61,963 nt of DNA from a virus (lineage: Duplodnaviria > Caudoviricetes): the IMG/VR virus record IMGVR_UViG_3300050331_000115, positions 1 through 61,963 of that record. One strand, 5' to 3'. The translations under genes and the position numbers were made by a program. Of this stretch, positions 3,401 through 60,727 are shown one piece after another (position 1 is the first letter of the stretch; each line of letters opens with the position of its first letter). A model generated the notes under the pieces. It worked only from the letters and a program-made list of their open reading frames with translations. It was not told where the DNA came from and made no database searches.

Positions 3401-4054
3401 TCAAACGATCTCAGCCACCCTCGAGCGCAGGTAGTGGATGGTCCCGCCGTTGTGCAGTACGACGTCCGGGTCTGTTGGTGGAGTCTCGGACGAGTGGCCA
3501 TTGACCGGACCGAAGCCTGGTCGGTCCACCAGAACGACGATGCCGCCGCGAGCTCGGATGGCGGCGGCCTCGTTGGGGAAGCGGCAGTCGTCGACGACGT
3601 AGCGTTCGGTTGCGTCGAGGCCGGCAGCCCACAGATCCACCCATAGGTTGTCGCCGAAGAAGCCACGGCCCCACTCTGTGCCCAACCACTGCATAGCCTG
3701 GCGTGGTGTGCGCCCTTGCAGCAGATCGTCAGGAACCTCCTTGAGGTCGCCCTCAATTCGACGCTCGATCTCTAGGCGCGGCATTCCAGCCGAGTTGTAG
3801 AGGGCGCGCATCATCGACTTGAGCGGGCCGGCGAACTTGGTGCGACGGAAACCGAATTGGTCGACAAGCACTTCGGCCGCCGTCGACTTGCCCGCCCCAC
3901 CGTAGCCCATCAGCCCGATGATACGCGGATGGCGCGCCAAGCCGTTGTCGTTGGCTGCCGGGGGTGGGGGCGGTGAGTAGGCAAAAGGGTGGCCCCGCCC
4001 AGCCTCGATCGACTCGCGTATCATCTGCGCGTTGTAGCTTTCCTTTGCGAGCAT
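3401..4054 (-). CDS. Deoxynucleoside monophosphate kinase
   Basis: IIGLMGYGGAGKST, FAGPLK, TPRQAMQWLGTEWGR, DDCRFPNE; AANDN in N-terminal extension. Confidence 0.9.
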   Translation of the reverse strand: MLAKESYNAQMIRESIEAGRGHPFAYSPPPPPAANDNGLARHPRIIGLMGYGGAGKSTAAEVLVDQFGFRRTKFAGPLKSMMRALYNSAGMPRLEIERRIEGDLKEVPDDLLQGRTPRQAMQWLGTEWGRGFFGDNLWVDLWAAGLDATERYVVDDCRFPNEAAAIRARGGIVVLVDRPGFGPVNGHSSETPPTDPDVVLHNGGTIHYLRSRVAEIV

Positions 4055-4056
4055 GC

Positions 4057-4665
4057 TCAGTGCCTCCTCGTCTCGATGAGCAACCAATAGGTCGCAAGGT
4101 ATTCCGCCTTCGCCCGCTCCGGCGCCCAGAACTGCAACGTGACGCCTAGGGGTTCCAATCCAGGCCACCCGCCCTCGTAGTTGCCGGGGGCCATGTTTTG
4201 GGCGCGCTCGTCGGACAGAATGCTGTTGTCCGCGAATACGACAATCTCCGGCAGAAGCGGCGATAGCCCGAACTTCTCCGCGATCACCGCCCACAGCCGC
4301 TGCTCGGCCTCTTTGTAGCCGGGCAAGAACGGCTTCACCGGCCGCGGCACGTCGACGAGATATGCCTCCATGTCGTCGTGGTGCAGGGCGTGTTCCGCCT
4401 CCAGCGTCATCCCCTGTTCGATGAACCATCGAGCCATGAGAGTGGCGTGCTCTGCCACGCTATGGAAGCGCAAGCAGTGGCCCGCATAGCGGCACTGCAT
4501 CGACAGGCTGTGGGCGATGTCGTTGATGTCGACCTCGTCGGCGCGCGGGTCCATCGGCCAGAACTGTCGCCCCGATGCGACCTGCATGAAATTGCCGATG
4601 CGGGTGGCGGGAGGCGGCGCGCCGCCCACCCATGTATTGTTGCGGAGTACGGGCTGGGAGGTCAT
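4057..4665 (-). CDS. HD-domain deoxynucleotide phosphohydrolase (YfbR/YfdR/DatZ-like)
   Basis: DIAHSLSMQCRYAGH, SVAEH, LHHDDMEAYLVDVPRPVK. Confidence 0.85.
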   Translation of the reverse strand: MTSQPVLRNNTWVGGAPPPATRIGNFMQVASGRQFWPMDPRADEVDINDIAHSLSMQCRYAGHCLRFHSVAEHATLMARWFIEQGMTLEAEHALHHDDMEAYLVDVPRPVKPFLPGYKEAEQRLWAVIAEKFGLSPLLPEIVVFADNSILSDERAQNMAPGNYEGGWPGLEPLGVTLQFWAPERAKAEYLATYWLLIETRRH

Positions 4666-4700
4666 CGTGGTGGGCTCCTCTGTGGTGGTGGTAGGTGTAT

Positions 4701-6593
4701 TCAGGCGCTCTTTTGGTTGTCCCCGCCGGCGGGTGGCGCTGGAGCGTTATCGTTGGCCGCGGCCGGTACGCGCAGGGTTGGCTTGGCGGCTCGCCACTTG
4801 CCTTTCTGGAGTGTGACTAGGGTCCGCTTGCCGTTTGGGTACTGCACGATGTGCGTGACAGCCCATGAGCTCGGTCCTTTGTTGTAGCCGTGCCGCAGGT
4901 TCATGGCGCCGGCGCAATAGACGCCGTCCATGATTTCCGGGGAGTGCTTGTCGCCGATGCTCATTCGCCTGCCAATGCGAGCGAAACCGGAGATCGTGCC
5001 CTTTGCTCCGTTCGCTCCCCGGAAGCCGTGATTCCCGCACTCGATTCCGTCGATGAGGAACGACTGGCCATCATGGACCCATTCAATCCCGAGCAGGCCG
5101 GTGTCGTCTGCCCGTCGGGCCGCGTGCTCGAGAAGGGAGAACGTCGGCACCGGCAACCCGCCGTCGAGCGCGAGCGCTTGCTCCTCTCTGGACGCCATGT
5201 ACGCGTCTTCAAGTTGCAAACCGTACCGAGCGTTGGCCCCGTCGTTGCGATACCTCCCCTCGCGAATGTATCGCTCGAGGCCGAGATCGTGGTTGCTCTC
5301 CACGACGACGGGCTTCGTGCCAGGACGGGCAACGCGACGGAGGAATGCCGCGACGTCAGCGACCTCCTGCATCACGCTGTCGCGGCCGCGGATGGTCATC
5401 TCGTAGAAGTGCGCATTATCGTTCACGTGGTGATGGCTGCGCGACTCGTTGTCGAACACGTCATGCACGAGCAAGTAGTCAGGTCGCAGGGTATCGATGA
5501 GGTTGTCACGATAGATCCAGCCGTCCTCCGTGCCGAAGCCGAAGGTCGCGAGCGCGTTGTGGTGGTCTAGCTTGCGCACATGCGCGTCAGCGCAGACCAC
5601 CGCCCTTACCGGGTGGCCGGTGGTGACGACTCCACCCGACACGAAGACGTCCAGGTCGTAGAAACTCCCGTCGTCGGCGGCGCTGATCTGGCGCGGGAAA
5701 ATATCACCCCAACTGTCGAACTCAATGAGCGTTGCGCCGATGATGTGGTGGAAGATCGACTTGATGCCTGCCTTGCGCGGGATGACCTTCGGCTGAGTGA
5801 CGGCGCCGGTTGTCATCACCTGGTGCGCCTGCACGTTGGGGTCAGTCGACGGGACGCTCTTAAGTTGGAGTTTAGCGTGCGGGAACACCCCCCACCTGCC
5901 GCGGCTGTACGTCACGAGGTCTGAGATGGGACGGGCAGCGGTCGGCAGAGTGTTCATTTCGCCGCAGAAGACGAAGTTGTCGCCAATTGCCATCTGACCG
6001 AAGGCGATGTAGTTCTGGATTTCCTCGGCGTAGTCACGGGACTGCGGGTTGTTCTCGTTGAACCACGACGTCTCGTATGTCCACGGCCCAACAACAATCT
6101 CCGCACCGATATGGGCGGCGAACGCCCGGAGGTTCTCCCAGAAGGCAGGGTGGATCGGGGCGTCGTTCTGCGCGCCAGTGAACAGGAAGCGTCGGTCGCG
6201 CGCGTCGGTGATGGGGGCGACACGTAGGGTGTCCGACACCCATGTTTTTGGCGCCCGCTCTGACTCGACGTATTCACCGGCGTCTCGGTCGTACCGCAAT
6301 CCGGTCTGCGCCTCGACGTGTACCGCCTCTGGGTTGACGACTGGATACCGAGTGCCTGTCATCATCTGCACAAGCCACTCTCGCATCGCGTCGGCGCGAG
6401 CGGTCGCATGCTCACCGGCGCTGCGGCTGTTGGCGGCTGTAACCAGCCCACGCTCCTCTGCCTGACGCATGTGTCGCTGCACTGTCTCTCGCGATACGCC
6501 AAGCGCCGCGGCCGTCAGCGTCTGTTTCCGGCCGTTTGCATCATACGCCGCGACAGTGGCGAGCAGCACCTCATCGGGGGTCTTGGGGGTCAT
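4701..6593 (-). CDS. N-terminal HTH plus calcineurin-like metallophosphoesterase
   Basis: HTH TAAALGVSRETVQRH; ADAH, HDVFD, SNHD, NHG, GDKHS metal-ligand pattern. Confidence 0.7.
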   Translation of the reverse strand: MTPKTPDEVLLATVAAYDANGRKQTLTAAALGVSRETVQRHMRQAEERGLVTAANSRSAGEHATARADAMREWLVQMMTGTRYPVVNPEAVHVEAQTGLRYDRDAGEYVESERAPKTWVSDTLRVAPITDARDRRFLFTGAQNDAPIHPAFWENLRAFAAHIGAEIVVGPWTYETSWFNENNPQSRDYAEEIQNYIAFGQMAIGDNFVFCGEMNTLPTAARPISDLVTYSRGRWGVFPHAKLQLKSVPSTDPNVQAHQVMTTGAVTQPKVIPRKAGIKSIFHHIIGATLIEFDSWGDIFPRQISAADDGSFYDLDVFVSGGVVTTGHPVRAVVCADAHVRKLDHHNALATFGFGTEDGWIYRDNLIDTLRPDYLLVHDVFDNESRSHHHVNDNAHFYEMTIRGRDSVMQEVADVAAFLRRVARPGTKPVVVESNHDLGLERYIREGRYRNDGANARYGLQLEDAYMASREEQALALDGGLPVPTFSLLEHAARRADDTGLLGIEWVHDGQSFLIDGIECGNHGFRGANGAKGTISGFARIGRRMSIGDKHSPEIMDGVYCAGAMNLRHGYNKGPSSWAVTHIVQYPNGKRTLVTLQKGKWRAAKPTLRVPAAANDNAPAPPAGGDNQKSA

Positions 6594-6619
6594 TCGATCG
6601 CCTCGCTGCGCTTGCTGAC

Positions 6620-6654
6620 AATAAAAAATGCCGGCAGCCCGAAGGCCGCCGGCG
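6620..6654 (-). terminator. Intrinsic terminator
   Basis: GCCGGCGGCC-TTCG-GGCTGCCGGC followed by ATTTTTT on minus strand. Confidence 0.85.
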
Positions 6655-6661
6655 TGAACGA

Positions 6662-6766
6662 TTACGCAAACACGAGATAGCCGACGGCCAACATGGTGAC
6701 GACGACGATTGCGGCGACGAACCAGTCGGTGTCATCAAGCGGCACCTTGGGCGGTATGCTCTGCAT
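6662..6766 (-). CDS. 34-aa single-TM peptide MQSIPPKVPLDDTDWFVAAIVVVTMLAVGYLVFA (not in ORF track)
   Basis: Strong SD AGGAGAGG, hydrophobic C-terminal helix, own terminator. Confidence 0.7.
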   Translation of the reverse strand: MQSIPPKVPLDDTDWFVAAIVVVTMLAVGYLVFA

Positions 6767-25675: not shown

Positions 25676-26400
25676 GCGGCTTGTTCCAATTCGTTGCCGA
25701 AGTTCAGGTAACAGTCTCTCCCCCATGCAGCGAGCGCTGCCGAGTCGTAAGCGCGAGCGGCGTCCTCTGGAGATGGGAAGGTGCCGAGGTGGGAAGTCAC
25801 GCCGTCGGCCTTAATTGTGGCCTGCCACTTTCTGCCACACGCATGAATGCCCTTGAAGCCGCCATTCCGGGGCGGTCGGAGCTGGGCTATTTTTCGCATG
25901 GCCTCAGATATTTTGAGTCGAGATTCCTCGCCCATTACCTTGCCGCGGTGCGCAGCGCCAATTCTTTCGCGAACCTCTGGCGTGACCAGCGCCTTCTGAA
26001 TTGCCGATAGCCTCAGCCTGTGCTCCGGTGTCATTGCTGCTGAGGCCGCAGCAGCCATCTTAGCTCTGGTCTCGGCGGTTGGAGAAAACCCGACTGTCCC
26101 GTCTCCCCCATCTGTCGAGTTTACCAATCGGGCTCCACCCTCTCGATAGGACGCGATCAGATCAACCTCCTTAGACTTAGCCTCTTGCTCCGTAAGGCCG
26201 TCCATTAGGGGCGTCATCACCACATCGGCGCCTTCGCGCCTAACTGCACCGATCCAGTTTGTTCTGTGATTTTGACGTCTGTCACTCAGATGTCTCGCCA
26301 TCCTGCGAGCCGGGGTGGTACTCGTGATGCCAACATATCGTACGTCAGATGGTGAACGGCTGTCCGCAAGCGTGTACACCGTCCAACTTTTTTCAGTCAT
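25672..26400 (-). CDS. Free-standing GIY-YIG homing endonuclease with NUMOD3 repeats and AP2 domain
   Basis: VYTL...RYVGIT, LVNSTDGGDG, ETRAKM/ESRLKIS, HLGTFPSPEDAARAYD. Confidence 0.85.
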   Translation of the reverse strand: MTEKSWTVYTLADSRSPSDVRYVGITSTTPARRMARHLSDRRQNHRTNWIGAVRREGADVVMTPLMDGLTEQEAKSKEVDLIASYREGGARLVNSTDGGDGTVGFSPTAETRAKMAAAASAAMTPEHRLRLSAIQKALVTPEVRERIGAAHRGKVMGEESRLKISEAMRKIAQLRPPRNGGFKGIHACGRKWQATIKADGVTSHLGTFPSPEDAARAYDSAALAAWGRDCYLNFGNELEQAA

Positions 26401-27674
26401 TCGGCGTTCGCCTCGTCGTCATCGTTGTCGGTGGACGGGGCCGGCGCTCCATCCTGTTGCTTCTCCTGCGGCTCCGGAGGCTGCGATCCAAGGGGCACTG
26501 TGGCCCCTTGGATGAGCAGATCGTCTCCGTGCGGCAGGGCCGGCCGGTTCTCCTTGGCGCGAACCTCGTTCGGGGTCATCTGCGCCGTCTGGATCGCCCT
26601 GGCGTACCCCTCGGTGCGGCTCTTGAAGTCGCCACGCATCAGCCCGTCGAGGTTGTGCTCGATGTACCGGCTGCCGCGGTCGCGCCCGAACACCTTCAGG
26701 TTGAGTTCGTCCTCGAACGCCTCCGTCCACTGCCCGATCAAGTGCTTGACCAGATGCAGATCCTGCTGCTCGGCGTTGTTGAGCGTGGCGCGGGTCAAGT
26801 CCTGCAAGAAGATCGGCGGCAACTGGTAGGCTCGCGCGATTTCCTCGATCTGAAACCGACGCGCGTCGGTCATCTGACTCTTTTCGGGGTCCAGCCCAAC
26901 CGCCTTGAGTTCATAGCCGGGCGGGATGGCGAACACCGCCTCGCCGGCGTTTTTGGCGCCGTCGACGGAGCGCTTGATGTCCGCCTGCGCCCGCTTCATC
27001 GCCTCCGGGCTGGCCGGAAGCGGCCCCGTAAGGGCCAACGGCGGCACGCCGCCACCGGCGAAGAAGTTGCTGGCATAATCGTTCATGGCGAGGGCCAACT
27101 GGATGGCCTTGGCCGCCAGCGTGACGGGGCCATAGTGGCTGATGCCGTCCGGCTTCAGCATGAACGGGACGTCAATCACGTCCTCGGCTGCGTACGTCTT
27201 GCTCTCGTGCGCGTAGGTTACCCGACCAGCGGTGCGCTTGATCGTCGTCTTGGTGGGGTCGAGCGGCCACATGGCCTCGACGCCACTAGAACTGCGCTCG
27301 ATCCACGCCAGCCCGCGCCCGCCGGTGAACACCTGCTGCCAGAAATACTGGCGGAACTTGAAGCTCCCCATGCCGGGGTTCGGGGCGTCGTGAACGACCG
27401 TTCCCAGCCGCCCGCCAACCTTAACCGCGTTGCCCTGCCTGTCCCGTCGATACGGGTGGAGCGGCAGGGCGGCCAGCGTGCGCGACAGGAACGCCACGGC
27501 CGCCGACACAGCCGGCACCGTGAGCGCGCTATCGATGGTGACGGCAGGAACGTTGCCATTATTGACCCCGAAGAACGCCAGAAAGTTCTCGGCGCTCACC
27601 GGGATCGTCGGATTCTCGATAGACGCCCTGGCCTCTGCCGCCTGCGATCGCGCCAGTTCGACAGAGAACTTCAT
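26397..27674 (-). CDS. Portal protein, HK97 family
   Basis: IEEIARAYQLPP, NAEQQ, TPNEVRAKEN. Confidence 0.96.
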   Translation of the reverse strand: MKFSVELARSQAAEARASIENPTIPVSAENFLAFFGVNNGNVPAVTIDSALTVPAVSAAVAFLSRTLAALPLHPYRRDRQGNAVKVGGRLGTVVHDAPNPGMGSFKFRQYFWQQVFTGGRGLAWIERSSSGVEAMWPLDPTKTTIKRTAGRVTYAHESKTYAAEDVIDVPFMLKPDGISHYGPVTLAAKAIQLALAMNDYASNFFAGGGVPPLALTGPLPASPEAMKRAQADIKRSVDGAKNAGEAVFAIPPGYELKAVGLDPEKSQMTDARRFQIEEIARAYQLPPIFLQDLTRATLNNAEQQDLHLVKHLIGQWTEAFEDELNLKVFGRDRGSRYIEHNLDGLMRGDFKSRTEGYARAIQTAQMTPNEVRAKENRPALPHGDDLLIQGATVPLGSQPPEPQEKQQDGAPAPSTDNDDDEANAE

Positions 27675-31346: not shown

Positions 31347-31706
31347 TTACGCGGCCTCCGCCGCAATCTTGTGGTTGTCGTTGGCCGCGCGACATACGTG
31401 CAATGCAATTTGCTTGCCGTGTCTATCAAGCGCGCCACCAGCGTGGACTAGCCCAGCGTTCTTCGCCGCCACATGGAACGGCACGGCACCATCGACGCCG
31501 AGCGCCACCAGTAGCGCCTTGTCGCGAGCCCATGTCCGCGGCGCGTCCTTGTCGAGGTAGATGCCGGCCTTGAACGCGCGGCTGCGATCACCATCCCCGC
31601 TAGCAGCGGCCGTGTCGCTCGTCTGCCGCGCCGGAACCATGGCATCCAGGCGTTCCAGATCAGGGGCGCGCATCCGCTTGCCGCCGATCACTGCCAGTTT
31701 GCTCAC
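31347..31706 (-). CDS. First late gene, hypothetical, with C-terminal ssrA-like tag AANDNHKIAAEAA
   Basis: SD GGAGG plus GTG start. Confidence 0.7.
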   Translation of the reverse strand: MSKLAVIGGKRMRAPDLERLDAMVPARQTSDTAAASGDGDRSRAFKAGIYLDKDAPRTWARDKALLVALGVDGAVPFHVAAKNAGLVHAGGALDRHGKQIALHVCRAANDNHKIAAEAA

Positions 31707-32065: not shown

Positions 32066-32584
32066 TCACCTCACCAGCCCGTACCGCCGCGCCAGGACGT
32101 CCAGCCCCAGCCGCAACCTGTCGGTGGCCACAGCCCGCCTCTGGCTTGCGCCGGTCCATCCGAGATCCGCGCCCGCCGCCTCGAGCGATTGCTCCTCCAG
32201 CACGACGCGATCGACGACCTGGCCGAGCGCGCCAAGATCGGTTCGCGCGCGGCGCCACCGCTGTGCGGCGCCCACCCTGTAGTCGCTCTCGGTTTTGGGA
32301 CTGTGCCCATCCACCATCGGCCTGCCGTAGTCCACGGCTCCTAGCGGGGCCATCCCCGCGGCATACCAGTCTGCGTAGTACCTCTCGGCGGCATCAAGCT
32401 GCGCATCCGTCAGCCGCCCATCCTTGTGCATTCGTCTGACCGGCGAGTCCTGCATCGTGTGGGTGCCGGTCTTGCGATCCACCACGAAGTTATCGTTGGC
32501 CGCCCTGAGCCGCTCTGGCGTTGGCACGACCGCCTCGTCGTCAAAGCTGAACTTCGGCATAGCGGGCTTGGTTTTCGCCTTCAT
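32066..32584 (-). CDS. Late gene regulator, DUF6456/Q-like
   Basis: QLDAAERYYADW, LRLGLDVLARRYG; upstream of late operon; internal AANDNF. Confidence 0.75.
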   Translation of the reverse strand: MKAKTKPAMPKFSFDDEAVVPTPERLRAANDNFVVDRKTGTHTMQDSPVRRMHKDGRLTDAQLDAAERYYADWYAAGMAPLGAVDYGRPMVDGHSPKTESDYRVGAAQRWRRARTDLGALGQVVDRVVLEEQSLEAAGADLGWTGASQRRAVATDRLRLGLDVLARRYGLVR

Positions 32585-38248: not shown

Positions 38249-38728
38249 CTACACTGCCTCGGGTTCTGCATTTTGCTTATTATCATTCGCCGCCAACCAC
38301 CCGCACACCAGCCCCACCGCGGCAGCAGCAGCCTCCTCCTCTGTGGAGGCGCGGACCACCTCGACGGTGTGACCGATCGCGCGCAGGGCGTCGTGCCGCT
38401 CGACCTGTGCCGGCGACAAGCGCCCTTTGGCAGTTTTGTTCTCGATGAACGCGCACCGCCCGCCAGGCAGGAAGATGGTGAGATCCGGGTGCCCCGCGGT
38501 TAGTCCGGTTGCCTTCGCCTTTACCTGCTCCTGCGGCCCGCGGCGCCCTGCCTCCATGCCACCAACCAATAGGAATTGTCTGCCGTAGGTGGGCAGGGCG
38601 CGCAGTGACCGAATTTGGGCGGCTTGTAAGCGCCACTCGAGCACCGGCGCCTCGACAAGCGTTGTTTTTACGACGCGGCTGCCGTTTGGCAGGGTCGTCG
38701 TGGTGCATTTGAGGCGGGTGCGGGTCAA
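38249..38728 (-). CDS. VRR-NUC domain nuclease
   Basis: GLTAGHPDL, FIENKT, GRLSPAQ; ends AANDNKQNAEPEAV. Confidence 0.88.
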   Translation of the reverse strand: MTRTRLKCTTTTLPNGSRVVKTTLVEAPVLEWRLQAAQIRSLRALPTYGRQFLLVGGMEAGRRGPQEQVKAKATGLTAGHPDLTIFLPGGRCAFIENKTAKGRLSPAQVERHDALRAIGHTVEVVRASTEEEAAAAAVGLVCGWLAANDNKQNAEPEAV

Positions 38729-39000
38729 GGTTCGAGCGCCTTGTCGATCATGGCTTGCCATGCCTCCGTCATGGCCCACGATGTTACGCCGTCGCCGTCC
38801 ACCTCGTCTGTGGTCGCCATCCCTCGACGCACCACCTCCGCAGCCGGCTCCCGCATGGCCTCGATGGCAGCGCGGGCGAGGTCGCGGCACACGTCCACCC
38901 CCAAAGCCTGCGTCCGCATATGCGACCCCGGCTCTCTCCCAGCCGTTGGGGAACGGTCGCGGATCGCCCTCGCCACTCGCTCGATCATCTCGCTTGCCAT
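38725..39000 (-). CDS. Hypothetical protein
   Basis: MIERVARAI...ARAAIEAMREP...WQAMIDKAL. Confidence 0.7.
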   Translation of the reverse strand: MASEMIERVARAIRDRSPTAGREPGSHMRTQALGVDVCRDLARAAIEAMREPAAEVVRRGMATTDEVDGDGVTSWAMTEAWQAMIDKALEP

Positions 39001-43123: not shown

Positions 43124-44845
43124 CTAGGCGACACGGGCGGCCTCGCTGGTGTTGTTGTCGTTGGCGGGTTGGCGCAAGTGCGGCATCAGTCGGTCGATGC
43201 GCTTGCCGAGCCACACAAACATCGGGACTGCCCAAGAATTGCCAAGTGCCTTGTAGCGGGGGCCATCCGGGCAAAGTTCGGCTGGCTTATTGCGCTACGG
43301 GATGGCGGTGTAGTCGTCTGGAAATCCCTGCAACCGCTCGCACTCGACGGGGGTTAGGCGGCGGACTGCCGATGGGGTCATTACCGACTGGATTTGACCG
43401 CCTCCGGTTGGCGACTGTTTGGTGATCGTAAGGGCGCAGTCCTCATTGAACTTGGGAGTCTGCTCCGTGGTGAAGGCAATCGCCGGTGGCGCTCCGGCAT
43501 TCGCGTGGGACTCGGTGTGGCCGCTCGCTCGCAGCGTCGGGCTGACGTCAACGGAGGCGTCGGCGCCGTAGTCTTTGGAGGAGAAGCATACCACCGACGC
43601 GCTCGGATCGGTGCCGGTCGTGAGCGGAGCGGCGCGGTCTCCCTCGCGGTAGACCGCGCCGTCGCCTGCAACTCGGTAGGCTTCTGCCACGATAGGAGTC
43701 CCCCTGCCCGTGCCGTCCTCGCTGGCATCCGCCCCCTCGGCCTTGAGGGTATGCGTCACCGCGCCGGTGACGCATACTGCTTGCGCAACCATCGTCGTGG
43801 TCTCGTAGTCCTGCGATGAACCCTCGCGCGTTGCGACGCAACGCGCGATCTCTGGGGCGTAGACTGCCGGCACATGCGACGTACTCACGGTCGGCGACGG
43901 GTCGCCGGCGGAACCAATGCCAGTGCCTGGAGCACCGCCGCTAGTGCCCTCTGGCCGGTTGTTGGTCATCGTAGCGCCACGGCTCGCCTGGCGCATGTCG
44001 ATGGGGATAGGCATGGCGGCCTCAATCACCCCACCGTCTAGATCGAAGTCGGTTCCAAGTCCGCCACCGCCCTTAGTGCGAGCGCTAATTGTGGGGGCAA
44101 CGTCTTTCCGCGCTTCTCTGCTCGGCGGAGTATACCCCGGCACGCCAAAGAGCTCAAAAAGAACCGCTGCGGGATCTGCCCCGTCTCCAAAATCTGCGAC
44201 AAGGACGACACGACGGCGTCGCTGGGGAACTCCGAAAAATTCTGCGTTCTTGACAGCCCATGCGGCACGACCTTTCGGTCCAGAGACCATACCGTGACTG
44301 GGCCATCTGCGTCCGTCCGGAGGAGGAAGGGCGTCATCTGCGCCGACAAACGCCCCCAGGAGACATCCGAAGGCGTTGTCCTTGGTGTTGAGGACTCCTG
44401 GAACGTTTTCCCAGATGACGTTGCGGAGTCCATTTCCGGGCCGCCGTGCGGCTCGTCCTCCCACATCAGCATCTGCAGCGGATCCATTGTTGCGCGGCGG
44501 CGAGATGCCAGCGAGCTCATGTGCAAGCCTCACGAATTCGAGGGAAAGGTTACCGCGGGCATCGGCCAGCGAGTTGCGTAGGCCGGCGATGCTGAACGCC
44601 TGGCATGGCGTGCCGCCGCAAAGAATGTCCACGCGACCGAGTTGCGTGGTGTCGATCATGGTGAAGTCGCCGAGGTTCGGCACATCAGGGTAGTGGTGCG
44701 CCAGGACGGCGGACGGGAACTTCTCGATCTCGCTGACTGCGACGCACTGCCAGCCGAGAGGCCCCCAAGCTACGGAGGCGGCCTCGATGCCGGAGCAAAC
44801 CGAGAGGAAGCGGATGGGGTCATTATCATTCGCTGCTTCGGTCAA
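43124..44845 (-). pseudogene. C5-cytosine DNA methyltransferase interrupted by in-frame TAG at 43295-43297
   Basis: SVCSGIE, GGTPCQ, WENVPG, PQRRRR, ECERLQGFPDDYT; YKALGNS lies after the TAG in the same frame. Confidence 0.88.
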
Positions 44846-45207
44846 AATGGTACTTCTCCCTCACGAACCTGCTTGCGTATGCTGCTGCCGAACTCCAAAA
44901 TCACCGACGTCACGAACTCGGTGACCTGCTGCTCCGACCAGTCGGCAAGGTCGCTTCCGTTGCGCTCGATCAGCGGGCCGACGGCCTCGATCGCGGCCTG
45001 CACCGCATTGTCCTCGTAGACATCGAAGCGCATGGTGGCCTTGATCTGCTGGATGAGGGGCGCGCACTGCTGACAGATGTAATGGGGGTCGCCGTCACCA
45101 TTCCATCCGAACCCTTCAAGTCCGATGCCGGTGGCGTGTCGGCCGCAGCAGAAACAGGTCGTGGGTTTGTGGAGCGGCGGGCCGTTGGTGGTGGGGGTAT
45201 GGGTCAC
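44842..45207 (-). CDS. Zn-binding hypothetical protein
   Basis: CFCCGR...CQQC; ends EVPF. Confidence 0.65.
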   Translation of the reverse strand: MTHTPTTNGPPLHKPTTCFCCGRHATGIGLEGFGWNGDGDPHYICQQCAPLIQQIKATMRFDVYEDNAVQAAIEAVGPLIERNGSDLADWSEQQVTEFVTSVILEFGSSIRKQVREGEVPF

Positions 45208-45848
45208 GCTGCTTGCTCCAGATTGTCGTTCGCCGCAACCACTTGCGTGGTGGCGGGCACGTGGTCCTTCCAGTCGAACCACTGGATTGCCGGCCGGCCC
45301 TCGTGCCGCTCATCCCAGACGAACCACGCGTGGCAGACGGCCGAGCCGGCTTTCGGCCCATCCCATCCATGGCGGTGCATCATGGGCAGGCGCCGACTGG
45401 AGACATGAACGCGCGCCAGCGACCCGTGCTCGAACCAGAACTGGCGCTTCCCTCCCTCGAGGAACGCCAGGCGCAGGAGCATAGCGACATAGCCGCACTC
45501 CATGAGCGCGCGGTCGACGAACTCCTTGGCGAGTTTGAACGGCGGGTTGGTGATGACGCCCTCGACGTTTGATGGATGTCGACCGTCGCGCACGAAGTCC
45601 AGGCCGCTCATGCTGTCGGGGCACCCGCGGTCCACGAGGTCGGTGGCCTCGACGTTCCACCCTGCTGCGCGCAGCGGCAGGACAATCGCGCCGTCGCCAC
45701 ATGCCGGCTCCCAGATCGTGCCGCGCGGCAACCACTTCGACTCAATGGCGAGCAGCGCATGCACCGCCTCCGGTGGGGTGGCATAGAAGTCGTCGCCGCG
45801 CTCGGCGTGCGTGTGCGTGCCGACGCCGGCCACCATCCTGCTACTCAT
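45204..45848 (-). CDS. Amino (N6-A/N4-C) DNA methyltransferase
   Basis: DFYATP, IWEPACGDG, ITNPPF; ends AANDNLEQAA. Confidence 0.85.
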   Translation of the reverse strand: MSSRMVAGVGTHTHAERGDDFYATPPEAVHALLAIESKWLPRGTIWEPACGDGAIVLPLRAAGWNVEATDLVDRGCPDSMSGLDFVRDGRHPSNVEGVITNPPFKLAKEFVDRALMECGYVAMLLRLAFLEGGKRQFWFEHGSLARVHVSSRRLPMMHRHGWDGPKAGSAVCHAWFVWDERHEGRPAIQWFDWKDHVPATTQVVAANDNLEQAA

Positions 45849-46500
45849 CCTCGCTTCTCCATTCCTTCTTGCCTTCATGTGCCACCACGACCGGCTCAAT
45901 CTTCTTCCCGCCGCGCGCGTCCAGCGACGCCAGCCATTTCTCGTCCAGCTTCCGCGCTGGTTTGTATGCGATCGCATAGTGCGCCTCGCAGTAGTGGCTA
46001 CGCTTGCGCTTCTTCGCGCCGCAGAAGGCTCGTCCGTGGCCGTCGATCGGCCACTGGCATCCTGTGCCGTTGTAGGACGGCTTCTGCCCAGGCAACGGTT
46101 GCCACACCGCCGGGTCGACCGGATCGGCGGGCACTTCCGGTGGGCCGCCACGACGCACCACAACCACCTGTTCCGAGATCCCGCGCATGTTGTTGCGCCA
46201 GGCAAAGTGCCGCAGCGCGGCCGGTGTGATGCCGAGTTCCTTGGCAGTCTCAGACGTCAGTTTGCCGTTGTCGTTCGCGGCCTGGATGTGCTCGGCGCGC
46301 TGCTCGTTGGTCATCCCGTACCAGCCGGTCTTTGGGCGGTTGGCGACGCCGGGGATCTGATGGCGGTAACAAAATCCATGAAGCGCGTTTGGTGTGATGC
46401 TGAAGGCCGCGGCGATCTCGGCCTTGGTGTGGCCGGCGTCACGGAGGTCGGTGACGGCAACGATGCGCGCCGCCGTGGTGAGTTTGGGCCAGGGAGTCAA
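45841..46500 (-). CDS. GcrA-like transcription regulator
   Basis: Two HTH-like repeats plus CQWPI...FCG...YCEAHYAIAY. Confidence 0.75.
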   Translation of the reverse strand: MTPWPKLTTAARIVAVTDLRDAGHTKAEIAAAFSITPNALHGFCYRHQIPGVANRPKTGWYGMTNEQRAEHIQAANDNGKLTSETAKELGITPAALRHFAWRNNMRGISEQVVVVRRGGPPEVPADPVDPAVWQPLPGQKPSYNGTGCQWPIDGHGRAFCGAKKRKRSHYCEAHYAIAYKPARKLDEKWLASLDARGGKKIEPVVVAHEGKKEWRSEDE

Positions 46501-47927: not shown

Positions 47928-49655
47928 TCAAAACGGAATTTCGTCCATTGCTGCCCAGTCTTCCTTGTTCATGTACGTGCGCAGTCCGCCGTCCCGCGGC
48001 AGCACCAGGTTCCCCTCGCGCTTCGGCGGAGGCACGTAGGACTCATCCTTGCTTTCGCCTGCCATGCTGTCGGTGACATTCCAGTAGCGCCCGTCCTTTT
48101 TCAGGACGACGTGGCTGGTGATCAGCAGTTCGCCGGCGCGATCGAGGAACTCGTCGACGGTCTTCGGGAACGGCGTCTTGCCGCCGTGCTTGGCCCACCA
48201 ACGGTTGGCCTTGCTATTGGCGTAGCTGCCTTTCGGGTGCTCGCCGTGCTGGGGACAAACCCATTCACTCGCCCGTACGCGCTCGGTCTCGTACGTCACC
48301 TTGACCGACGGCACGCCGCCTGGCTTGTCGTGGTAGGCGAAGGTGCGGCCGATGACGGGTTCCCACAGCGGCTCGTCGGTGGAGAGGATTGGGGCGACGT
48401 CGGCAGTGGTCGTGAACTTCTTTTCTTCGCTCGGCGGGAACTGGTAGCCGCAGCACGGGCAGACCATGACGGAAATATGCACGAGTTCGTCGCACCCACC
48501 ATCATCGCGCGGGCACTGCTTTATAGGAGGCTCTCCGTCACCATCTCCAGGTGCCTTTGGTCGGATGAGGTCGATTGGCCCAAACCGTCGAAGGTTCCCA
48601 CCATGGTCGAGCACGAGGCAGTCCTTCTTGCCGGGGAAGTTGCGCGTGCCGCGACCGAGGATCTGCACAAAGAGACCGGGAGACTTGGTGGCGCGGATGA
48701 CCGAGATCAGGTCCACGAACGGGAAGTTGGCGCCGGTGGTGATCATGTTCGCCGACGCGATTGACCATAACTTGCCTGCGCGAAAGTCCGACAGAATGCG
48801 ACGCTGATCTGCCTCAGACGTGCGGCTGGTGAGTGACTCGCACGTGCGGCCCTGAAGCCGAACTTCGTCGCGAACGTGGTCGGAGTGATCCTGCCCAGAA
48901 CAGAAGAAAAGCGCGGCGCGTCGATCTGCGCCCCACATGAGGGCCTCCCGAACTGCGGCCTCAGTGATCTCAGTCTTGTCCGCCGCGCGTGCCATCTGGC
49001 CTGGGACGAATTCTCCGCCGCGCGTGCCTACCCCCTTGAGGTCGATCGTGGTTTCGGTGTTCTTGTTGGACAGACGAGTCAGATACCCTCGATCGATTAG
49101 ATCGGTGATGCTAATCTCGTAGACGATGTCGTCGAACAGCGCGCCGTCACCATCGGTGAGCATGCCGGAGTCCATGCGGTACGCAGTGGCCGTCGTCCCA
49201 ACAATGCGACTGTCCGGGTTGGCTTTGCCGATGGCTGTAAAGAATTTCCCGTACTGGGTGTCCGCTTTGCGGCTGATGGCGTGGGCCTCGTCCACTATCA
49301 CGAGATCGACCTGCCCGAGGGCGGCGACTTTGTTGGCCACGCTCTGGATGCCACAGAACAGCACCTGCGCATTGCGGTCGCGGCGATTGAGGCCGGCGGA
49401 GTAAATTCCCGCTGGAGCGAACGGCGAGAGTCCGACGAACTCCTTGAAGTTCTGCTCGACCAAGGTTTTGCTATGAGTCACATTTAAGATACGCATATCG
49501 GGGTAATCGGCCAGCAGTTCCTCGATGATCTTGGCAATTACAAGGGCCTTGCCGCCGCCAGTCGGAAGCACGATCAGGCCATTGCCGCCACCGCCCGCCC
49601 AGTAGGCGTAGAGGGCGTCGATCGAGGCCCGCTGATAATCCCTAAGCTGCAGCAT
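47928..49655 (-). CDS. SF2 DEAH helicase with Zn finger (RadD/YejH-like)
   Basis: LRDYQ, PTGGGK, DEAH, TAT, QILGRGTR, Cys cluster. Confidence 0.93.
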   Translation of the reverse strand: MLQLRDYQRASIDALYAYWAGGGGNGLIVLPTGGGKALVIAKIIEELLADYPDMRILNVTHSKTLVEQNFKEFVGLSPFAPAGIYSAGLNRRDRNAQVLFCGIQSVANKVAALGQVDLVIVDEAHAISRKADTQYGKFFTAIGKANPDSRIVGTTATAYRMDSGMLTDGDGALFDDIVYEISITDLIDRGYLTRLSNKNTETTIDLKGVGTRGGEFVPGQMARAADKTEITEAAVREALMWGADRRAALFFCSGQDHSDHVRDEVRLQGRTCESLTSRTSEADQRRILSDFRAGKLWSIASANMITTGANFPFVDLISVIRATKSPGLFVQILGRGTRNFPGKKDCLVLDHGGNLRRFGPIDLIRPKAPGDGDGEPPIKQCPRDDGGCDELVHISVMVCPCCGYQFPPSEEKKFTTTADVAPILSTDEPLWEPVIGRTFAYHDKPGGVPSVKVTYETERVRASEWVCPQHGEHPKGSYANSKANRWWAKHGGKTPFPKTVDEFLDRAGELLITSHVVLKKDGRYWNVTDSMAGESKDESYVPPPKREGNLVLPRDGGLRTYMNKEDWAAMDEIPF

Positions 49656-51479: not shown

Positions 51480-51676
51480 AACACCCCCTCCGGAAACATC
51501 TCGATCGTCCGTTCGCACCGCTTCGGCTTCGGCTTGGGCAGCAGACCGATGGCAACATCGAGCGCCGACCTGATGTCCCCGGCCACCAGTCTGCCCAGCA
51601 CGTCGGCGTCGCCGGTCTTCGCCCACAAGTGCAGTGTTTCGAGGACTTCTCTGGCTTCGTCGCGGTTCATGGTCAC
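51476..51676 (-). CDS. Small hypothetical protein
   Basis: Coupled on both sides. Confidence 0.55.
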   Translation of the reverse strand: MTMNRDEAREVLETLHLWAKTGDADVLGRLVAGDIRSALDVAIGLLPKPKPKRCERTIEMFPEGVL

Positions 51677-52773
51677 ACCGCCACCCGGTACGAGCCCATG
51701 ACGCCGACCCAGTTGTCGTTGCCTGGAACAGTCATCCGCGAGAAGCTCACCGCGTCCTTGATGGCGAGATCCACGACCTCACCCGGCGCCGCAGCGAGCA
51801 TGTCGCTCAGTAACCCAGACTGGAACGCCAGCGACACCTCGGCGCCGTCGTACTCAGTGGGGACCTCGTCGACGGCGTCACGGCCGTCCTTGTCGGCAGC
51901 CTTTAGCGTCACCGCTCCGGTCGCCACATAGACACGCACCGGCTTGCCGGAGATGTCGGCAGTCACGATACTGACTCGACCAACTGCATCTGCGAACTCC
52001 GCCTTGTCGAGCCGCACCACCTTGTCGCAGCCTTGCGGGAGGCCGCGCTCGTACTGCAGGTACGGCTGCTCGATCAGTTTGGCCGTCAGCGCCGTGCCGT
52101 CGGCCGTCACGGAAATCATGGACTTGCCGACGCGCAGATCGACGGCACCCTTGGGCAGCATGCCGACGACGCGACCCGGCACGACGACGCCGGGCATGCC
52201 TGCCGCGTCTTCCGGCAGGTCGGTGTCGTGGATGGCCATGCGCGCACCGTCTGCGCCAACGGCGCGCAACTTGCCGTCGTGGGCGTGCAGGTAGACGCCC
52301 TCTAGGCACGGCCGCTGCGGGTCGCTGGCGGACGCTGCGAACGCCACGGGAGCGAACAGTGCCGCAAGGTCAGCGGTGAACGTGGCGTCGAACGTGGCGC
52401 CGGCTAGCGTCGGCATGCTCTTGCTGGGAACGGACGGCAGCTTGAACCGCGAGCGTCCGGCCTTGATGGTCAACGTTCCGGTGTCGGCGACGGAGCCCGG
52501 CTCCAACTCCAGCGACACGGTGTCGCCGGCCAGGCGCTTGACGATGTCGTATAGGTTGCGCGCCGGAACGCAGGCTGTCCCCTGTCCGTGGACAGTGGCC
52601 GGGACGGTAGCGGTGATCTCGATGTCGAGGTCGGTGCCGCGGGCGGTCAGCGCACCATCTGCCGCTGTCAGGACGACGTGGCTCAGGATGGGGATGTGAT
52701 GACGGGTCTCGACAACCTTGGCGATCTGCGATAGGGCTTTCGACAGTTCTGCGCGTTGGACTTCTGCGTGCAT
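51673..52773 (-). CDS. dnaN: DNA polymerase III beta sliding clamp homologue
   Basis: IPILSHV, GTDLDI, GRSRFKL, LEGVYL, KLIEQPY; about 366 aa. Confidence 0.9.
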   Translation of the reverse strand: MHAEVQRAELSKALSQIAKVVETRHHIPILSHVVLTAADGALTARGTDLDIEITATVPATVHGQGTACVPARNLYDIVKRLAGDTVSLELEPGSVADTGTLTIKAGRSRFKLPSVPSKSMPTLAGATFDATFTADLAALFAPVAFAASASDPQRPCLEGVYLHAHDGKLRAVGADGARMAIHDTDLPEDAAGMPGVVVPGRVVGMLPKGAVDLRVGKSMISVTADGTALTAKLIEQPYLQYERGLPQGCDKVVRLDKAEFADAVGRVSIVTADISGKPVRVYVATGAVTLKAADKDGRDAVDEVPTEYDGAEVSLAFQSGLLSDMLAAAPGEVVDLAIKDAVSFSRMTVPGNDNWVGVMGSYRVAV

Positions 52774-52873: not shown

Positions 52874-53464
52874 TTACTTCTTGGCACCCCATGGCCGCTT
52901 CGGCGCTTCACCGGCAGCAGGCGCCGCCTTCTGGCCGTTGTCGTTCGCGGCGGCCCGGTTGCCGTTGGCCGCGGCGGTCGGACGCGGTGCAGCCTTAGCC
53001 GCCGGCACCTGGCCCTCGTCGGGGAAGTAGAACTTCTTGATCTCGTTCTTGGCCGGGTACGTCGGCACGCCGTTGGCGTCCTTCTCCTTGCTCGGCTTGC
53101 CCATGCCGATCTTCGCGGTGAACGACTTGAACATCAGGTCGTCGGTGTCGCTCACCGGGTCACTGATGCCCATGGCGCGGCAGAGCGCCGCGAACTGCGA
53201 CTGGCCGATGGTCTGCGCCTGTGCCGTGGGGTGCTCGAGGTTGAAGTAATCGAACACCTTGCGGCCCTTGTAGTCCTCCGGCTCGATCACCTGGTAGGTG
53301 ACCTTGACGCCGACCTTGCGTGTCCTTGGGCTGTCAGGGTCGGTGATCTTGACGTCGGCGGTCTCGACCTCGAGCACGTAGTCGCCATCGGGCAGGTTCT
53401 CGAAATCGGCGCGCTGCTCGGTGTCGTGTTCGGTGGGGTTGAAGGAAGTGCCAAGACTGGCCAT
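52874..53464 (-). CDS. DUF669-like single-stranded DNA-binding protein
   Basis: LPDGDY, YKGRKVFD, KNEIK, tail ending RPW with AAANDN. Confidence 0.8.
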   Translation of the reverse strand: MASLGTSFNPTEHDTEQRADFENLPDGDYVLEVETADVKITDPDSPRTRKVGVKVTYQVIEPEDYKGRKVFDYFNLEHPTAQAQTIGQSQFAALCRAMGISDPVSDTDDLMFKSFTAKIGMGKPSKEKDANGVPTYPAKNEIKKFYFPDEGQVPAAKAAPRPTAAANGNRAAANDNGQKAAPAAGEAPKRPWGAKK

Positions 53465-53490: not shown

Positions 53491-54693
53491 TTAGGCGGCG
53501 ATGGTGAGCGCGGAGGCGGGGAAGCCATGGCTGTTGTGGCCGGGGCGCGCCCCGTCGAGAACAACGTTGTAGTTGTCGGCGACGCCGGTGGTGATGCGGC
53601 CGGTGACGGTGCCGGAGATGGTGACCTTGGCGCCGACGGGGATGGCGGGCCTGGCCGCCCTGACCAGCGACCACTCCCCCAAGAAGACGCGGCGAGCCTC
53701 GCCGTCGGACGCGACGATTTTGCCGCTCGCATCCACCGTGTATTCGCGCCCAGCTGTGTAGAAGCGCCCGCCCCACGACTCGCATCGCACCACGTTGCCA
53801 GGCTTGGCGTCTTCGATGCTCCACGCTGCTGTTGCTTCCGCAACAGCAGCCGGTTCCGGTTCGACCCACTCGGCGACGAGGTCTTCGTGCGGTGAACGGC
53901 TGTCGTTCTGCACCAGACCCGCGTCGCTGTAGTAGCCGATATCGAAACTATAAGAGGTCCACGGGTAGCCATCGTCCCACCCACAGTTCTCCATCGGCCC
54001 CACCTTGCGACCGTCGCGCGTCCGGTAGAACTTGCCGGCCTCGATGGTGAGGGGCGCAGGCGCGATGTCATCCTCGCCGACCCAGTAGCCGAAGCCATCA
54101 TCGACGCGCCTTCCGCAGGTGTGCGCCCAGTCGAGTTTCTTGTCGAACTTGATCGCGATGCCGAGCTTACCATCGCCTACAGAGGCGATGGTCGCAGGCG
54201 CGTCGGTGAAGTTGCCGGCGACCTCGCGCACCATGACGACACGGTCGCCGACCTTCGGCCGCCACGCCTTGGTGGCGCGCGCGGCGGGCAGCAGTTCCAT
54301 ACCCTCGGTGGTGAGCCACCAGCCGCTTCCCGGTGTGATTTTGGCCCCAGACGAAAGTCCGTCATGTCCGTCGCGCCAGGCGTCGAACTCAACGAGGGCC
54401 GTGTCGCCGTCGACGCAGCGTACAGTCCCGACCTCACCTTTGGGCGCGCCCTCTGTGGCCCGCACCCTGTCGCCGACCTTCGGTGTATAGGTGGGCTTGT
54501 CCTCCGCGGGGGCATCGCCGTCGTCGATCACATACAGGTCGCTCTTGAACTGCCACAGTTCCGCACCCTCTTGGGCGAGCGGCCCCAAGCCGTTGTACTT
54601 GACCAGCCGCTCGCCCTTCCGCTTGTCGACGATCACGCCTTCGTCGCCATCCTGATCGCGCACTCGTGCGCCAATTCCGTATTTGCCGCCCAT
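53491..54693 (-). CDS. Modular protein with repeated KVGDRV (SH3/KOW-like) units
   Basis: Repeated GARVR/KVGDRVR/KVGDRVV/VGAKV modules. Confidence 0.7.
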   Translation of the reverse strand: MGGKYGIGARVRDQDGDEGVIVDKRKGERLVKYNGLGPLAQEGAELWQFKSDLYVIDDGDAPAEDKPTYTPKVGDRVRATEGAPKGEVGTVRCVDGDTALVEFDAWRDGHDGLSSGAKITPGSGWWLTTEGMELLPAARATKAWRPKVGDRVVMVREVAGNFTDAPATIASVGDGKLGIAIKFDKKLDWAHTCGRRVDDGFGYWVGEDDIAPAPLTIEAGKFYRTRDGRKVGPMENCGWDDGYPWTSYSFDIGYYSDAGLVQNDSRSPHEDLVAEWVEPEPAAVAEATAAWSIEDAKPGNVVRCESWGGRFYTAGREYTVDASGKIVASDGEARRVFLGEWSLVRAARPAIPVGAKVTISGTVTGRITTGVADNYNVVLDGARPGHNSHGFPASALTIAA

Positions 54694-59030: not shown

Positions 59031-59222
59031 ATGGGCGAACCAATCACCCTGCGGTGCTCGCACTGCGGCAACACCCAGCAATATGACCGCTCCGTTGACC
59101 CAGACCTACCGCCGGAGGTCGCCGTGATCGTCACCAACGAGTGCGACAAATGCGAGGCAGCAAACGGCGGCTTCGGAGAAGAGCACTGGTACGACGTAGA
59201 AGGCAAGGAGGTTGTTCCATGA
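59031..59222 (+). CDS. Small Zn-ribbon protein
   Basis: CSHC...CDKC. Confidence 0.6.
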   Translation: MGEPITLRCSHCGNTQQYDRSVDPDLPPEVAVIVTNECDKCEAANGGFGEEHWYDVEGKEVVP

Positions 59223-59833: not shown

Positions 59834-60118
59834 ATGAAGCTGACGAAAGAGGGAACATCGTTTGCTGATGTGATCCGGGCAGCTATCCCGGATGCCGACA
59901 CAGATGTTTGCGAGCACGTCCTATGGGGACGCACGCCGTATCCATTTGGACGTGTTTCAGCGAGGTCGCTGTTTAAGGCCGCTTCCGGTTGGCGTCGTGC
60001 CTGCGACAAGAAACAGGTGCTCTGCGATCATTGCGACAACCTCGCAGTGCCGGGAGAATTCGCGTGTCGGCGATGCGCGGATGCTCTCTGCGCCGCTCTC
60101 ACCAAGGTGAAGCCATGA
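59834..60118 (+). CDS. Zn-finger hypothetical protein
   Basis: LWGRTPYPF, CDHC...CRRC. Confidence 0.65.
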   Translation: MKLTKEGTSFADVIRAAIPDADTDVCEHVLWGRTPYPFGRVSARSLFKAASGWRRACDKKQVLCDHCDNLAVPGEFACRRCADALCAALTKVKP

Positions 60119-60288
60119 GCGGGGAGAGGTACTTTGGTCCGTTCCATGGTGTCTATTGGGAGCTACGGCGGGTGTGGTTCTGGCAAGCGCGCGATCTGGA
60201 ATTGCAGGGCTGGGTCGTACCGTTCGGACACCCCCTCAAGGTCAGGACGCCAATTCTCCGTCCGATGCCGGAAGGGTTCAAGCCATGA
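60115..60288 (+). CDS. Small hypothetical protein
   Basis: ATGA-coupled on both sides. Confidence 0.5.
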   Translation: MSGERYFGPFHGVYWELRRVWFWQARDLELQGWVVPFGHPLKVRTPILRPMPEGFKP

Positions 60289-60389
60289 CCCGCCAAGGCC
60301 GCTTCTTCGCCATTGGCTTTGCCATCATCCTCGCCCTCACCATTGGCGAGGCTGTGCTGGATCTGTTCGGATGGGGGATGGTGGGGTGA
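60285..60389 (+). CDS. Small membrane peptide
   Basis: Single TM segment, coupled. Confidence 0.4.
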   Translation: MTRQGRFFAIGFAIILALTIGEAVLDLFGWGMVG

Positions 60390-60478
60390 GTGCACACGAA
60401 AGCAAGGAACTGCTGGCGCTCATCAGCCGCGCCAGAGAGATCGCCGAGACCGTTGGACCGCTCCGGAAGGGAGGCGGC

Positions 60479-60727
60479 ATGAACCATGCAAATGATAACT
60501 ACCCACCCGTCCTCACGCGCTCTCAGGCGGCCGCCATGTGCCAACTGACTCCAGCCGGCTTTGATGTGTGGGTCAGGAAGCGTATCGTGCCGGCGGCGAT
60601 AGAGGGCACCCGCCGGTGGAGCCGCGACGCAATACTGCGAGCCCTGTCCGGCGCCGACGCCATCGGCGTAGATGCGGCGCTGTCGCCGTTCGAGCAGTGG
60701 GAAGCAGAGAATGCACGCACGGCTTAA
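60479..60727 (+). CDS. xis: Excisionase-like winged HTH
   Basis: LTRSQAAAMC...TRRWSRDAI; overlaps integrase start; begins MNHANDNY (in-frame GTG at 60386 is an alternative start). Confidence 0.75.
   Translation: MNHANDNYPPVLTRSQAAAMCQLTPAGFDVWVRKRIVPAAIEGTRRWSRDAILRALSGADAIGVDAALSPFEQWEAENARTA

Follow-up and report, generated by a model that had tools for sequence, protein, structure and literature searches.

The ssrA tag, which transfer-messenger RNA (tmRNA) adds to failed chains by trans-translation, is bound at its head by the adaptor SspB and read at its Ala-Ala (AA) end by ClpX. In published work, the Caulobacter tag is given as AANDNFAEEFAVAA (PMC9393093), anti-sigma factors of M. tuberculosis carry a genome-encoded ssrA-like degron that makes them ClpX substrates (bioRxiv 10.1101/491043), engineered weakened ssrA tags with an intact SspB-binding head and a weak C-terminal end confer SspB-dependent decay (PMC3064785), and gp18 of Pseudomonas phage pf16 is a phage-encoded SspB (PMC5587285). 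In this study, we found that the tetrapeptide ANDN, the head of the alphaproteobacterial tag, recurs eleven times in the proteins encoded by IMGVR_UViG_3300050331_000115, a complete provirus record from IMG/VR (61,963 bp, 63% G+C; hereafter the window, meaning the whole stretch of DNA analysed). A literature search found no published description of ANDN or tmRNA-tag mimicry in phage proteomes. Individual proteins with ssrA-like degrons have been described before, as have engineered tags that depend on SspB; the recurrence of such a motif over many proteins of one phage would be new.

Like the native alphaproteobacterial tag, many of the phage copies show an ANDN head after Ala and an AA end at matching spacing; unlike it, the phage motif is gene-encoded and also occurs at N-termini and internally. 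The M. tuberculosis degrons resemble the phage motif in being tag-like and written into the gene, but they are C-terminal ClpX signals on single host proteins, whereas the phage motif corresponds to the adaptor-binding head and is borne by about 10 of the roughly 80 window proteins, mostly DNA-handling ones, and by 10-21 sites in relatives of the window phage. Phage tails ending VA, AV, SA or CA have a layout comparable to that of the engineered tags, although the latter are single synthetic constructs derived from the E. coli tag, whereas the phage case is natural, multi-protein and known from sequence. Phage pf16 represents another phage route to the SspB pathway, in which the adaptor itself is phage-borne; the window lacks an SspB-like gene and instead encodes what is presumed to be the ligand of the adaptor. 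A close relative of the window phage is Rhizobium phage 16-3 (NC_011103.1), which has virion genes and a replication module in common with the window and 18 ANDN copies, but differs in that copies lie in its portal tail and tape-measure protein, both of which lack the motif in the window. The annotation of the 16-3 record makes no mention of the motif.

All eleven copies listed in the initial annotation were recovered at their places, and they are the only occurrences of ANDN in the six-frame translation of the window, every one in frame and on the coding strand of a gene. The DNA pattern GCNAAYGAYAAY gave 11 matches in the window (1 on the plus strand and 10 on the minus strand), all of which correspond to in-frame ANDN, with no out-of-frame match and none in the reversed-sequence control. 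The expectation of well under one chance occurrence was borne out by 5000 within-protein shuffles of the 78 called proteins (16,535 residues), in which the motif turned up 0.098 times on average and never more than 3 times, and AANDN, present in 9 copies, was the top 5-mer outlier in the first, incomplete gene set (Poisson p = 6e-15). The density in the window is 0.18 copies per kb. Across the window and nine close relatives ANDN occurs 74 times, whereas any other ordering of the four residues occurs at most 10 times, and the best of these, NDNA, overlaps ANDN-A. A compositional artefact was rejected on the basis of the shuffles and these other orderings.

The NDN codons come in five combinations (AAC GAC AAC five times, AAC GAT AAC and AAT GAT AAT twice each, AAC GAC AAT and AAT GAT AAC once each), no DNA similarity is shared around the window copies past the preceding Ala codon, and the motif is conserved in orthologues with different codons. 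The motif is thus a peptide signal rather than a DNA signal, as had been proposed from the codons, because every match is in frame, codon use differs between copies and their flanks bear no resemblance to one another; a DNA-level repeat or binding site was rejected on the same grounds. The location of 10 of the 11 copies on one strand might be taken to favour a signal in DNA or RNA, a mobile mini-cassette, biased composition or mere chance, but the strand follows gene orientation, with the single plus-strand copy in a plus-strand gene, and together with the frame, the varying third positions, the flanks, the orderings, the shuffles and the orthologues this leaves such an explanation next to negligible. 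Nor is the motif a true tmRNA tag in the sense of a trans-translation product, since the copies are in frame in phage open reading frames (ORFs) and ARAGORN found neither tRNA nor tmRNA genes in the window. The genes that bear the motif are as follows.

3401-4054, minus strand: deoxynucleoside monophosphate (dNMP) kinase (PF21448, DNMK), AANDN at 3944..3955, residue 34, in an N-terminal extension.
4701-6593, minus strand: helix-turn-helix (HTH) protein with PHROG 1745 'DNA transfer protein', AANDN at 4746..4757, 14 residues ahead of the stop.
31347-31706, minus strand: 119-residue protein, AANDN at 31374..31385, then 8 residues of which the last two are AA, then the stop (a complete tag-like tail).
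32066-32584, minus strand: DUF6456 protein, AANDN at 32489..32500, residue 29.
38249-38761, minus strand: VRR-NUC nuclease, AANDN at 38279..38290, 9 residues ahead of the stop, tail ending EAV.
43124-43294, minus strand: C-terminal fragment of the C5 DNA methyltransferase, PANDN at 43154..43165, 9 residues ahead of the stop.
43295-44845, minus strand: C5 DNA methyltransferase (PF00145, TTG start), AANDN at 44822..44833, residues 5-8, just ahead of motif I.
45204-45836, minus strand: second DNA methyltransferase (PHROG 799), AANDN at 45222..45233 followed by 5 residues ending AA and the stop.
45841-46500, minus strand: GcrA-like protein, AANDN at 46267..46278, residues 75-78.
52874-53464, minus strand: DUF669 protein resembling single-stranded DNA-binding protein (SSB), AANDN at 52937..52948, 20 residues ahead of the stop, in an Ala/Pro-rich tail.
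60479-60727, plus strand: Xis-like HTH protein, ANDN at 60488..60499, residues 4-7 (MNH-ANDN).

Two of these bearers were given other names in the initial annotation: its 'Q-like regulator' is the DUF6456 protein, and its 'phosphoesterase' is the protein matching PHROG 1745. The integrase does contain ANDE, as had been noted. Nine copies read AANDN, one PANDN and one HANDN. Six lie 5-20 residues ahead of the stop and four 3-33 residues past the start, and one is internal. None of the 11 falls in the virion and lysis block at 6853-30562, which makes up 38% of the window (probability of all 11 lying outside, 0.005), so that the claimed absence from structural proteins holds within the window.

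The motif is conserved to different degrees among the bearers. In the second DNA methyltransferase, NDN is invariant in 10/10 orthologues, which are 69-79% identical to the window protein; the core is shared up to WFDW and in the tail only NDN is invariant, with the Ala of ANDN 90% conserved and one orthologue reading VNDN. Distant orthologues from ANDN-poor phages (L010-L013, L085) end within a few residues of the WFDW core, and because these stop right past the core, the tail is an added module. The tail itself (residues 192-210) has a predicted local distance difference test score (pLDDT) below 50 and no secondary structure in an AlphaFold model, itself a weak one (mean 57). The ANDN of the DUF669 tail is kept in 8/8 orthologues. 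These DUF669 SSB-like proteins also share a conserved terminal motif, since all of them have a basic tip (RPW..K or PWSK) located 20-35 residues past ANDN.

At the C-terminus of the C5 methyltransferase, ANDN is found at the matching place in 4/4 orthologues, and among the three orthologues that reach the N-terminal region it is present in one, with DNDN in the other two. Both copies previously assigned to the two ends of this enzyme are present, but the gene is split by an in-frame TAG at 43292-43294 (minus strand), which leaves the C-terminal copy in a 56-codon fragment. Orthologues have Trp (3/4) or Tyr (1/4) at the TAG position, and the last 56 codons, which comprise a conserved motif and the ANDN tail, would go untranslated; the TAG represents either a pseudogene or a sequencing error.

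Purifying selection acts on the motif within otherwise variable tails, because NDN is kept in 10/10 methyltransferases and ANDN in 8/8 DUF669 tails and 4/4 C5 methyltransferase C-termini. The 119-residue protein has no family match, and its one homologue (in record G406) also ends in ANDN, 10 residues and AA-stop. The ANDN of the dNMP kinase directly follows a PPPPP run ahead of the P-loop, and its position is kept in the one orthologue found (p051 of NC_011103.1), as is that of the DUF6456 protein in its one orthologue (L001, 35% identity). Among nine VRR-NUC orthologues, two have ANDN, two have GNDN or SNDN and five have neither. No orthologue of the gene at 4701-6593 was found in the loci fetched. 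The Xis-like gene has GGGAGG ahead of its ATG and lies just upstream of, and overlaps, the integrase gene; the annotated xis of NC_011103.1 likewise starts M-R-V-A-ANDN.

For comparison with real tags, host tags and SspB were read in stand-in genomes carrying related loci; when 401 genomes of the order of G001 were screened at the DNA level, none held a near-identical prophage. Five alphaproteobacterial genomes with related methyltransferase loci were used; the prophage is rich in ANDN in one of them (Rhizobium aethiopicum) and poor in it in the other four. All five have SspB and a tmRNA of the alpha type, and the tags read by ARAGORN, ANDNYAEARLAA, ANDNYAPVAQAA (twice), ANDNFAQEYALAA and ANDNEALAIAA, all consist of ANDN and 7-9 further residues ending AA, in line, for these stand-ins, with the prediction that the host tag should start with ANDN. 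In four of the five genomes sspB and the tmRNA gene are no more than a few hundred bases apart (L162/L168, L161/L167, L163/L166, L164/L170).

The phage copies resemble these tags at both ends. Ala precedes ANDN in 44 of the 74 copies in the window and close relatives and Pro does so in 16, and (A/P)ANDN matches the tag head including the Ala donated by charged tmRNA. In 43 of the 74, ANDN lies 17 residues or fewer from the stop, with a mode of 7-10. Among coding-like ORFs of the window and 10 relatives, counted after those failing a filter on G+C at third codon positions (GC3) in their 3' part had been dropped, an AA end was found in 17/33 of those with ANDN 4-17 residues from the stop versus 33/386 of the others (Fisher p = 4e-9). 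Two window tails (31347-31706 and 45204-45836) are full mimics, with 8 and 5 residues past ANDN. The middle of the native tag is not copied in the phage tails. Mimicry of the host tmRNA (ssrA) tag, of which the phage genome would encode its own copies, is well supported at the level of sequence by the tag head, the AA ends across the lineage and the behaviour as a peptide signal.

AA also occurs at the end of proteins without ANDN, such as the large terminase at 27693-29630 (SLLAA), a 400-residue protein at 53491-54693 (TIAA) and the PNKP-like protein at 195-1205 (GEAA), and its frequency among ANDN-free coding-like ORFs of the lineage (33/386) is above the expectation from their 13% Ala content. 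In the ranking of C-terminal dipeptides of the window and relatives, AA comes first (50) and PF second (13). The window helicase (47928-49655, minus strand) ends DEIPF and a small Zn-ribbon protein (44842-45207, minus strand, PHROG 19707) ends EVPF, ends that resemble the acidic tip of bacterial SSB, and the PF ends look like a second borrowed docking motif. In some relatives (L009 6445, L081 11419, L005 11272, L006 11233), the protein just downstream of the methyltransferase has ANDN, then Q..DLF or NLF and AA-stop; we take the Q..DLF or NLF stretch to resemble a beta-clamp-binding motif. The window phage encodes its own DNA polymerase III beta clamp (51673-52773).

The distribution of the motif indicates that it belongs to a particular group of phages. 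The nine closest IMG/VR methyltransferase loci (66-77% identity) hold 64 ANDN in 158 kb, and the other 71 hold 2 in 1.13 Mb; among genome contigs, the R. aethiopicum prophage (L081) has 9 in 20.6 kb and the other 79 loci have 5 in 1.19 Mb. Taken together, the distant loci (n=150) contain 7 ANDN in about 2.3 Mb, and the ANDN-poor loci come from Rhodoplanes, Sphingomonas, Xanthobacter, Caulobacter, Rhodobacterales, Acetobacteraceae and others. Whole records gave 10, 18 and 21 pattern matches in three rich phages versus 1 and 0 in two poor ones, with none for the reversed pattern. Host chromosomes served as a further control. In the R. aethiopicum genome, 19 of the 49 pattern matches fall in a 63-kb stretch of contig 9 around prophage L081, and one match is the tmRNA gene; four other host genomes have 9-15 matches in 3.7-6.5 Mb. 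ANDN is far denser in the phage than in host chromosomes; the count against shuffled and host controls suggested in the initial annotation thus shows enrichment, which the close relatives have as well.

The window capsid and portal have their best matches in record G407 (69-72% identical), and the second DNA methyltransferase is 69% identical to p096 of phage 16-3; because of these identities, the window phage, a temperate one, can be assigned to the Rhizobium phage 16-3 group. The rich records G406 and G407, as opposed to the poor G409 and G410, have only the replication module in common, and this module is all that G406, with its 10 copies, has in common with the window. The trait thus travels with the replication module (AAA_24, DUF669, beta clamp, Cas4-like exonuclease, helicase, methyltransferase and VRR-NUC) and not with the virion genes. 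The 18 copies of phage 16-3 are located in the portal tail, the tape-measure protein, p036, the tail of the exonuclease p044, p051, the N-terminus of Xis, the tail of p056, p057, p072, p074, p078 (SSB-like), the tail of p085 (Cas4-like), the helicase p088 (two copies), the methyltransferases p096 and p097, p107 and one unannotated ORF. Beyond this group, a scan of IMG/VR for DNA coding AANDNxPA gave at least 120 matches, and 80 of the listed loci contain 184 ANDN in 650 kb, with three or more in 29 of them and about 60% G+C in 62. The alpha-type motif is therefore common in IMG/VR.

From these results, a probable mode of action of the motif can be inferred. Selection on the peptide would keep it in exposed ends of non-virion phage proteins, and the ANDN head would dock its bearer on the host adaptor SspB. 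The AA-ending tails (31347-31706 and 45204-45836) would also be engaged directly by ClpX and degraded like tagged proteins, while tails without AA, and the N-terminal and internal copies, would be tethering sites that turn their bearers into SspB-dependent ClpXP substrates. The net effect would be that DNA-handling proteins (nucleases and methyltransferases), the excision protein Xis and regulatory proteins are short-lived; as a speculation, leaky expression in the lysogen would be cleared and early functions switched off in time. From the sequence patterns described above, we judge the balance to tip slightly in favour of the view that the head docks on SspB and that its bearers are made substrates of ClpXP, by direct engagement where AA forms the end and by tethering where it does not.

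We modelled the SspB-peptide complex that the initial annotation had suggested, using residues 1-125 of R. aethiopicum SspB and residues 171-210 of the window methyltransferase, both as alignments. The three runs scored 0.36, 0.33 and 0.32 (score 0.33) versus 0.00, 0.00 and 0.01 for the controls, and they agree in at least 65% of contacts, with a partner pLDDT of 44-47. The pass mark used was reached by 58/80 solved complexes and 2/110 mismatched pairs, but passes at 0.60 or under include only 7/80 solved complexes and both of the mismatches that passed. Since R. aethiopicum SspB has solved relatives (2nys, 2qas and 2qaz), the pass may reflect likeness to solved SspB structures. The prediction exceeds its best control (0.01) and lends weak support to the SspB-tail complex.

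Several observations weigh against the proposal that the motif is an SspB-docking and degradation signal. The sole test of binding is this weak prediction, with an SspB that is not from the window phage's own host. The GcrA-like copy, which had been described as a linker, is the weakest of the eleven, since it lies at the end of a predicted helix in the second HTH repeat rather than in a free linker (AlphaFold; poor model, mean pLDDT 49) and is absent from the one homologue found (0/1). The portal tail of phage 16-3 (ANDN, 8 residues, AA-stop) and its tape-measure protein carry the motif, so that the exclusion of structural proteins does not extend from the window to this relative, and virion copies of this kind are not what one would expect if the motif merely marked proteins for degradation. 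In the whole of IMG/VR, just 8 stretches contain DNA coding the E. coli-type head AANDENY, compared with the at least 120 matches for AANDNxPA, which by chance is only about four times likelier than AANDENY at equal base frequencies, in a comparison that is not 5-mer-matched; encoded tag heads are therefore not a general phage habit. Of the six C-terminal copies in the window, four are head-only, with ends AV, VA, SA and KK, and just two end in AA. Directly after ANDN, four of the five native tags have Tyr or Phe; in the phage copies these two are rare at that position, which is mostly taken by R, E, G, A, K or T, and Pro stands at +2 in 26 of the 74 copies, which is not a feature of the native tags read. 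Finally, prophages with a related methyltransferase in same-tag, SspB-bearing hosts (four tested) have almost no ANDN, so the host tag and SspB are not enough and a lineage-specific factor must also be required. The interpretation originally proposed is thus supported in part, at the level of sequence, by the tag head, the AA ends of the lineage and the peptide signal, while docking on SspB, altered half-lives, titration and an adaptor-only role of N-terminal or internal copies would be its predicted consequences; the ANDN-poor prophages speak against a simple adaptation to the host tag.

Some of these points would also fit a different partner. According to this alternative, (A/P)ANDN-x-P docks on a protein of the replication module or on another host protein, and the likeness to the tag is partly coincidental. 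It would account for a trait that is restricted to one lineage although tag and SspB are present in 5/5 hosts and that follows the common replication module rather than virion genes, as well as for the +1 and +2 preferences unlike those of native tags, and the same phages have other short docking tails (the DEIPF/EVPF ends and Q..DLF tails). We nevertheless regard it as unlikely, as no candidate reader was found and it leaves unexplained the AA termini at tag-like spacing and the Ala before ANDN. In the search for such a reader, the 78 window proteins contained no SspB-like ClpX-binding tail (regular-expression search), and the replication module common to G406 and G407 has no obvious peptide-binding adaptor. 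The phage beta clamp was rejected, as it is also present in the ANDN-poor loci L010, L011 and L017, and processing by a phage protease was rejected as well, as the window encodes nothing that corresponds to p036, the trypsin-like protein of 16-3.

The lack of AA in 4/6 window C-terminal copies and in 16/33 of the lineage raises the alternative of a decoy or sponge, in which the many ANDN copies would occupy SspB, and thereby ClpXP, during infection; adaptor-dependent proteolysis in the host would slow down and phage or tagged proteins would be spared, with no destruction of the bearers themselves. Copies at N-termini or inside proteins do not qualify as classical C-degrons, and abundant proteins such as SSB-like DUF669 always bear the motif (8/8 orthologues). 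However, the AA termini strongly enriched beside ANDN would be needless for a pure SspB sponge, and low-copy enzymes and Xis bear the motif too, which makes a sponge distinctly improbable. ClpX also remodels MuA, and the bearers are mostly DNA-handling proteins acting in complexes; the tags might thus recruit SspB-ClpX to disassemble or position replication and recombination complexes without bulk degradation. Nucleotide kinases and methyltransferases would be unlikely targets of such remodelling, and we consider remodelling or localisation highly improbable.

The genes surrounding the bearers are arranged in the window as follows, with names given by family matches.

Left end, plus strand: PNKP-like kinase/phosphatase and RNA ligase.
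Next, minus strand: dNMP kinase, then a T5 A1-like 'DNA transfer protein'.
6853-30562: lysis and virion block with lysozyme, tail, tape measure, HK97-type capsid, portal and large terminase.
Between the virion block and the replication module: a block of small genes.
Replication module, first part: VRR-NUC, primase-polymerase, C5 and second DNA methyltransferases, GcrA-like protein and exonuclease.
Replication module, second part: helicase, Cas4-like exonuclease, phage-encoded beta clamp, DUF669 SSB-like protein and AAA_24.
Right end: S24 repressor, Xis-like HTH protein and integrase.

The PNKP-like protein (HAD phosphatase plus kinase) and the protein with a T4-type RNA ligase domain at 195-2538 (plus strand) are likely an RNA-repair pair. 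The GcrA-like protein apparently has two HTH repeats ahead of a Cys-rich GcrA C-terminal domain, and its presence, along with the CcrM-like methyltransferases of related phages, hints at a coupling to the host cell cycle. The portal of 16-3 (NC_011103.1 2202-3392) ends in ANDN, 8 residues and AA-stop, and the window portal (26397-27674, 72% identical in G407) has an acidic tail with TDND; the motif appears to have been gained or lost on a virion protein.

The SspB-ClpXP machine is cell-cycle regulated in Alphaproteobacteria. As a wider proposal, which we advance tentatively and rate below even, a lineage of temperate rhizobial phages, comprising the 16-3 group and many uncultured relatives, may run a proteome-wide address code taken from the ribosome-rescue tag, such that the lifetime of a tenth or more of the proteome would follow the state of SspB-ClpXP. 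In such a code, full copies (ANDN ... AA-COOH) would make their bearers constitutively short-lived and head-only copies (N-terminal ones, those in linkers and those in AA-less tails) would tether them to SspB, so that proteins from leaky expression would be removed in lysogens and the early programme would be kept to its timing. Phage 16-3, a cultured relative with 18 copies on named genes (including xis, the portal gene and two methyltransferase genes), makes these ideas directly testable. If they are true, the motif would provide adaptor-only tethering sites that occur in nature and a rule by which unstable phage proteins could be predicted from sequence, and a virus that writes the host quality-control tag into many unrelated proteins would represent a new coupling of the viral programme to host proteolysis.

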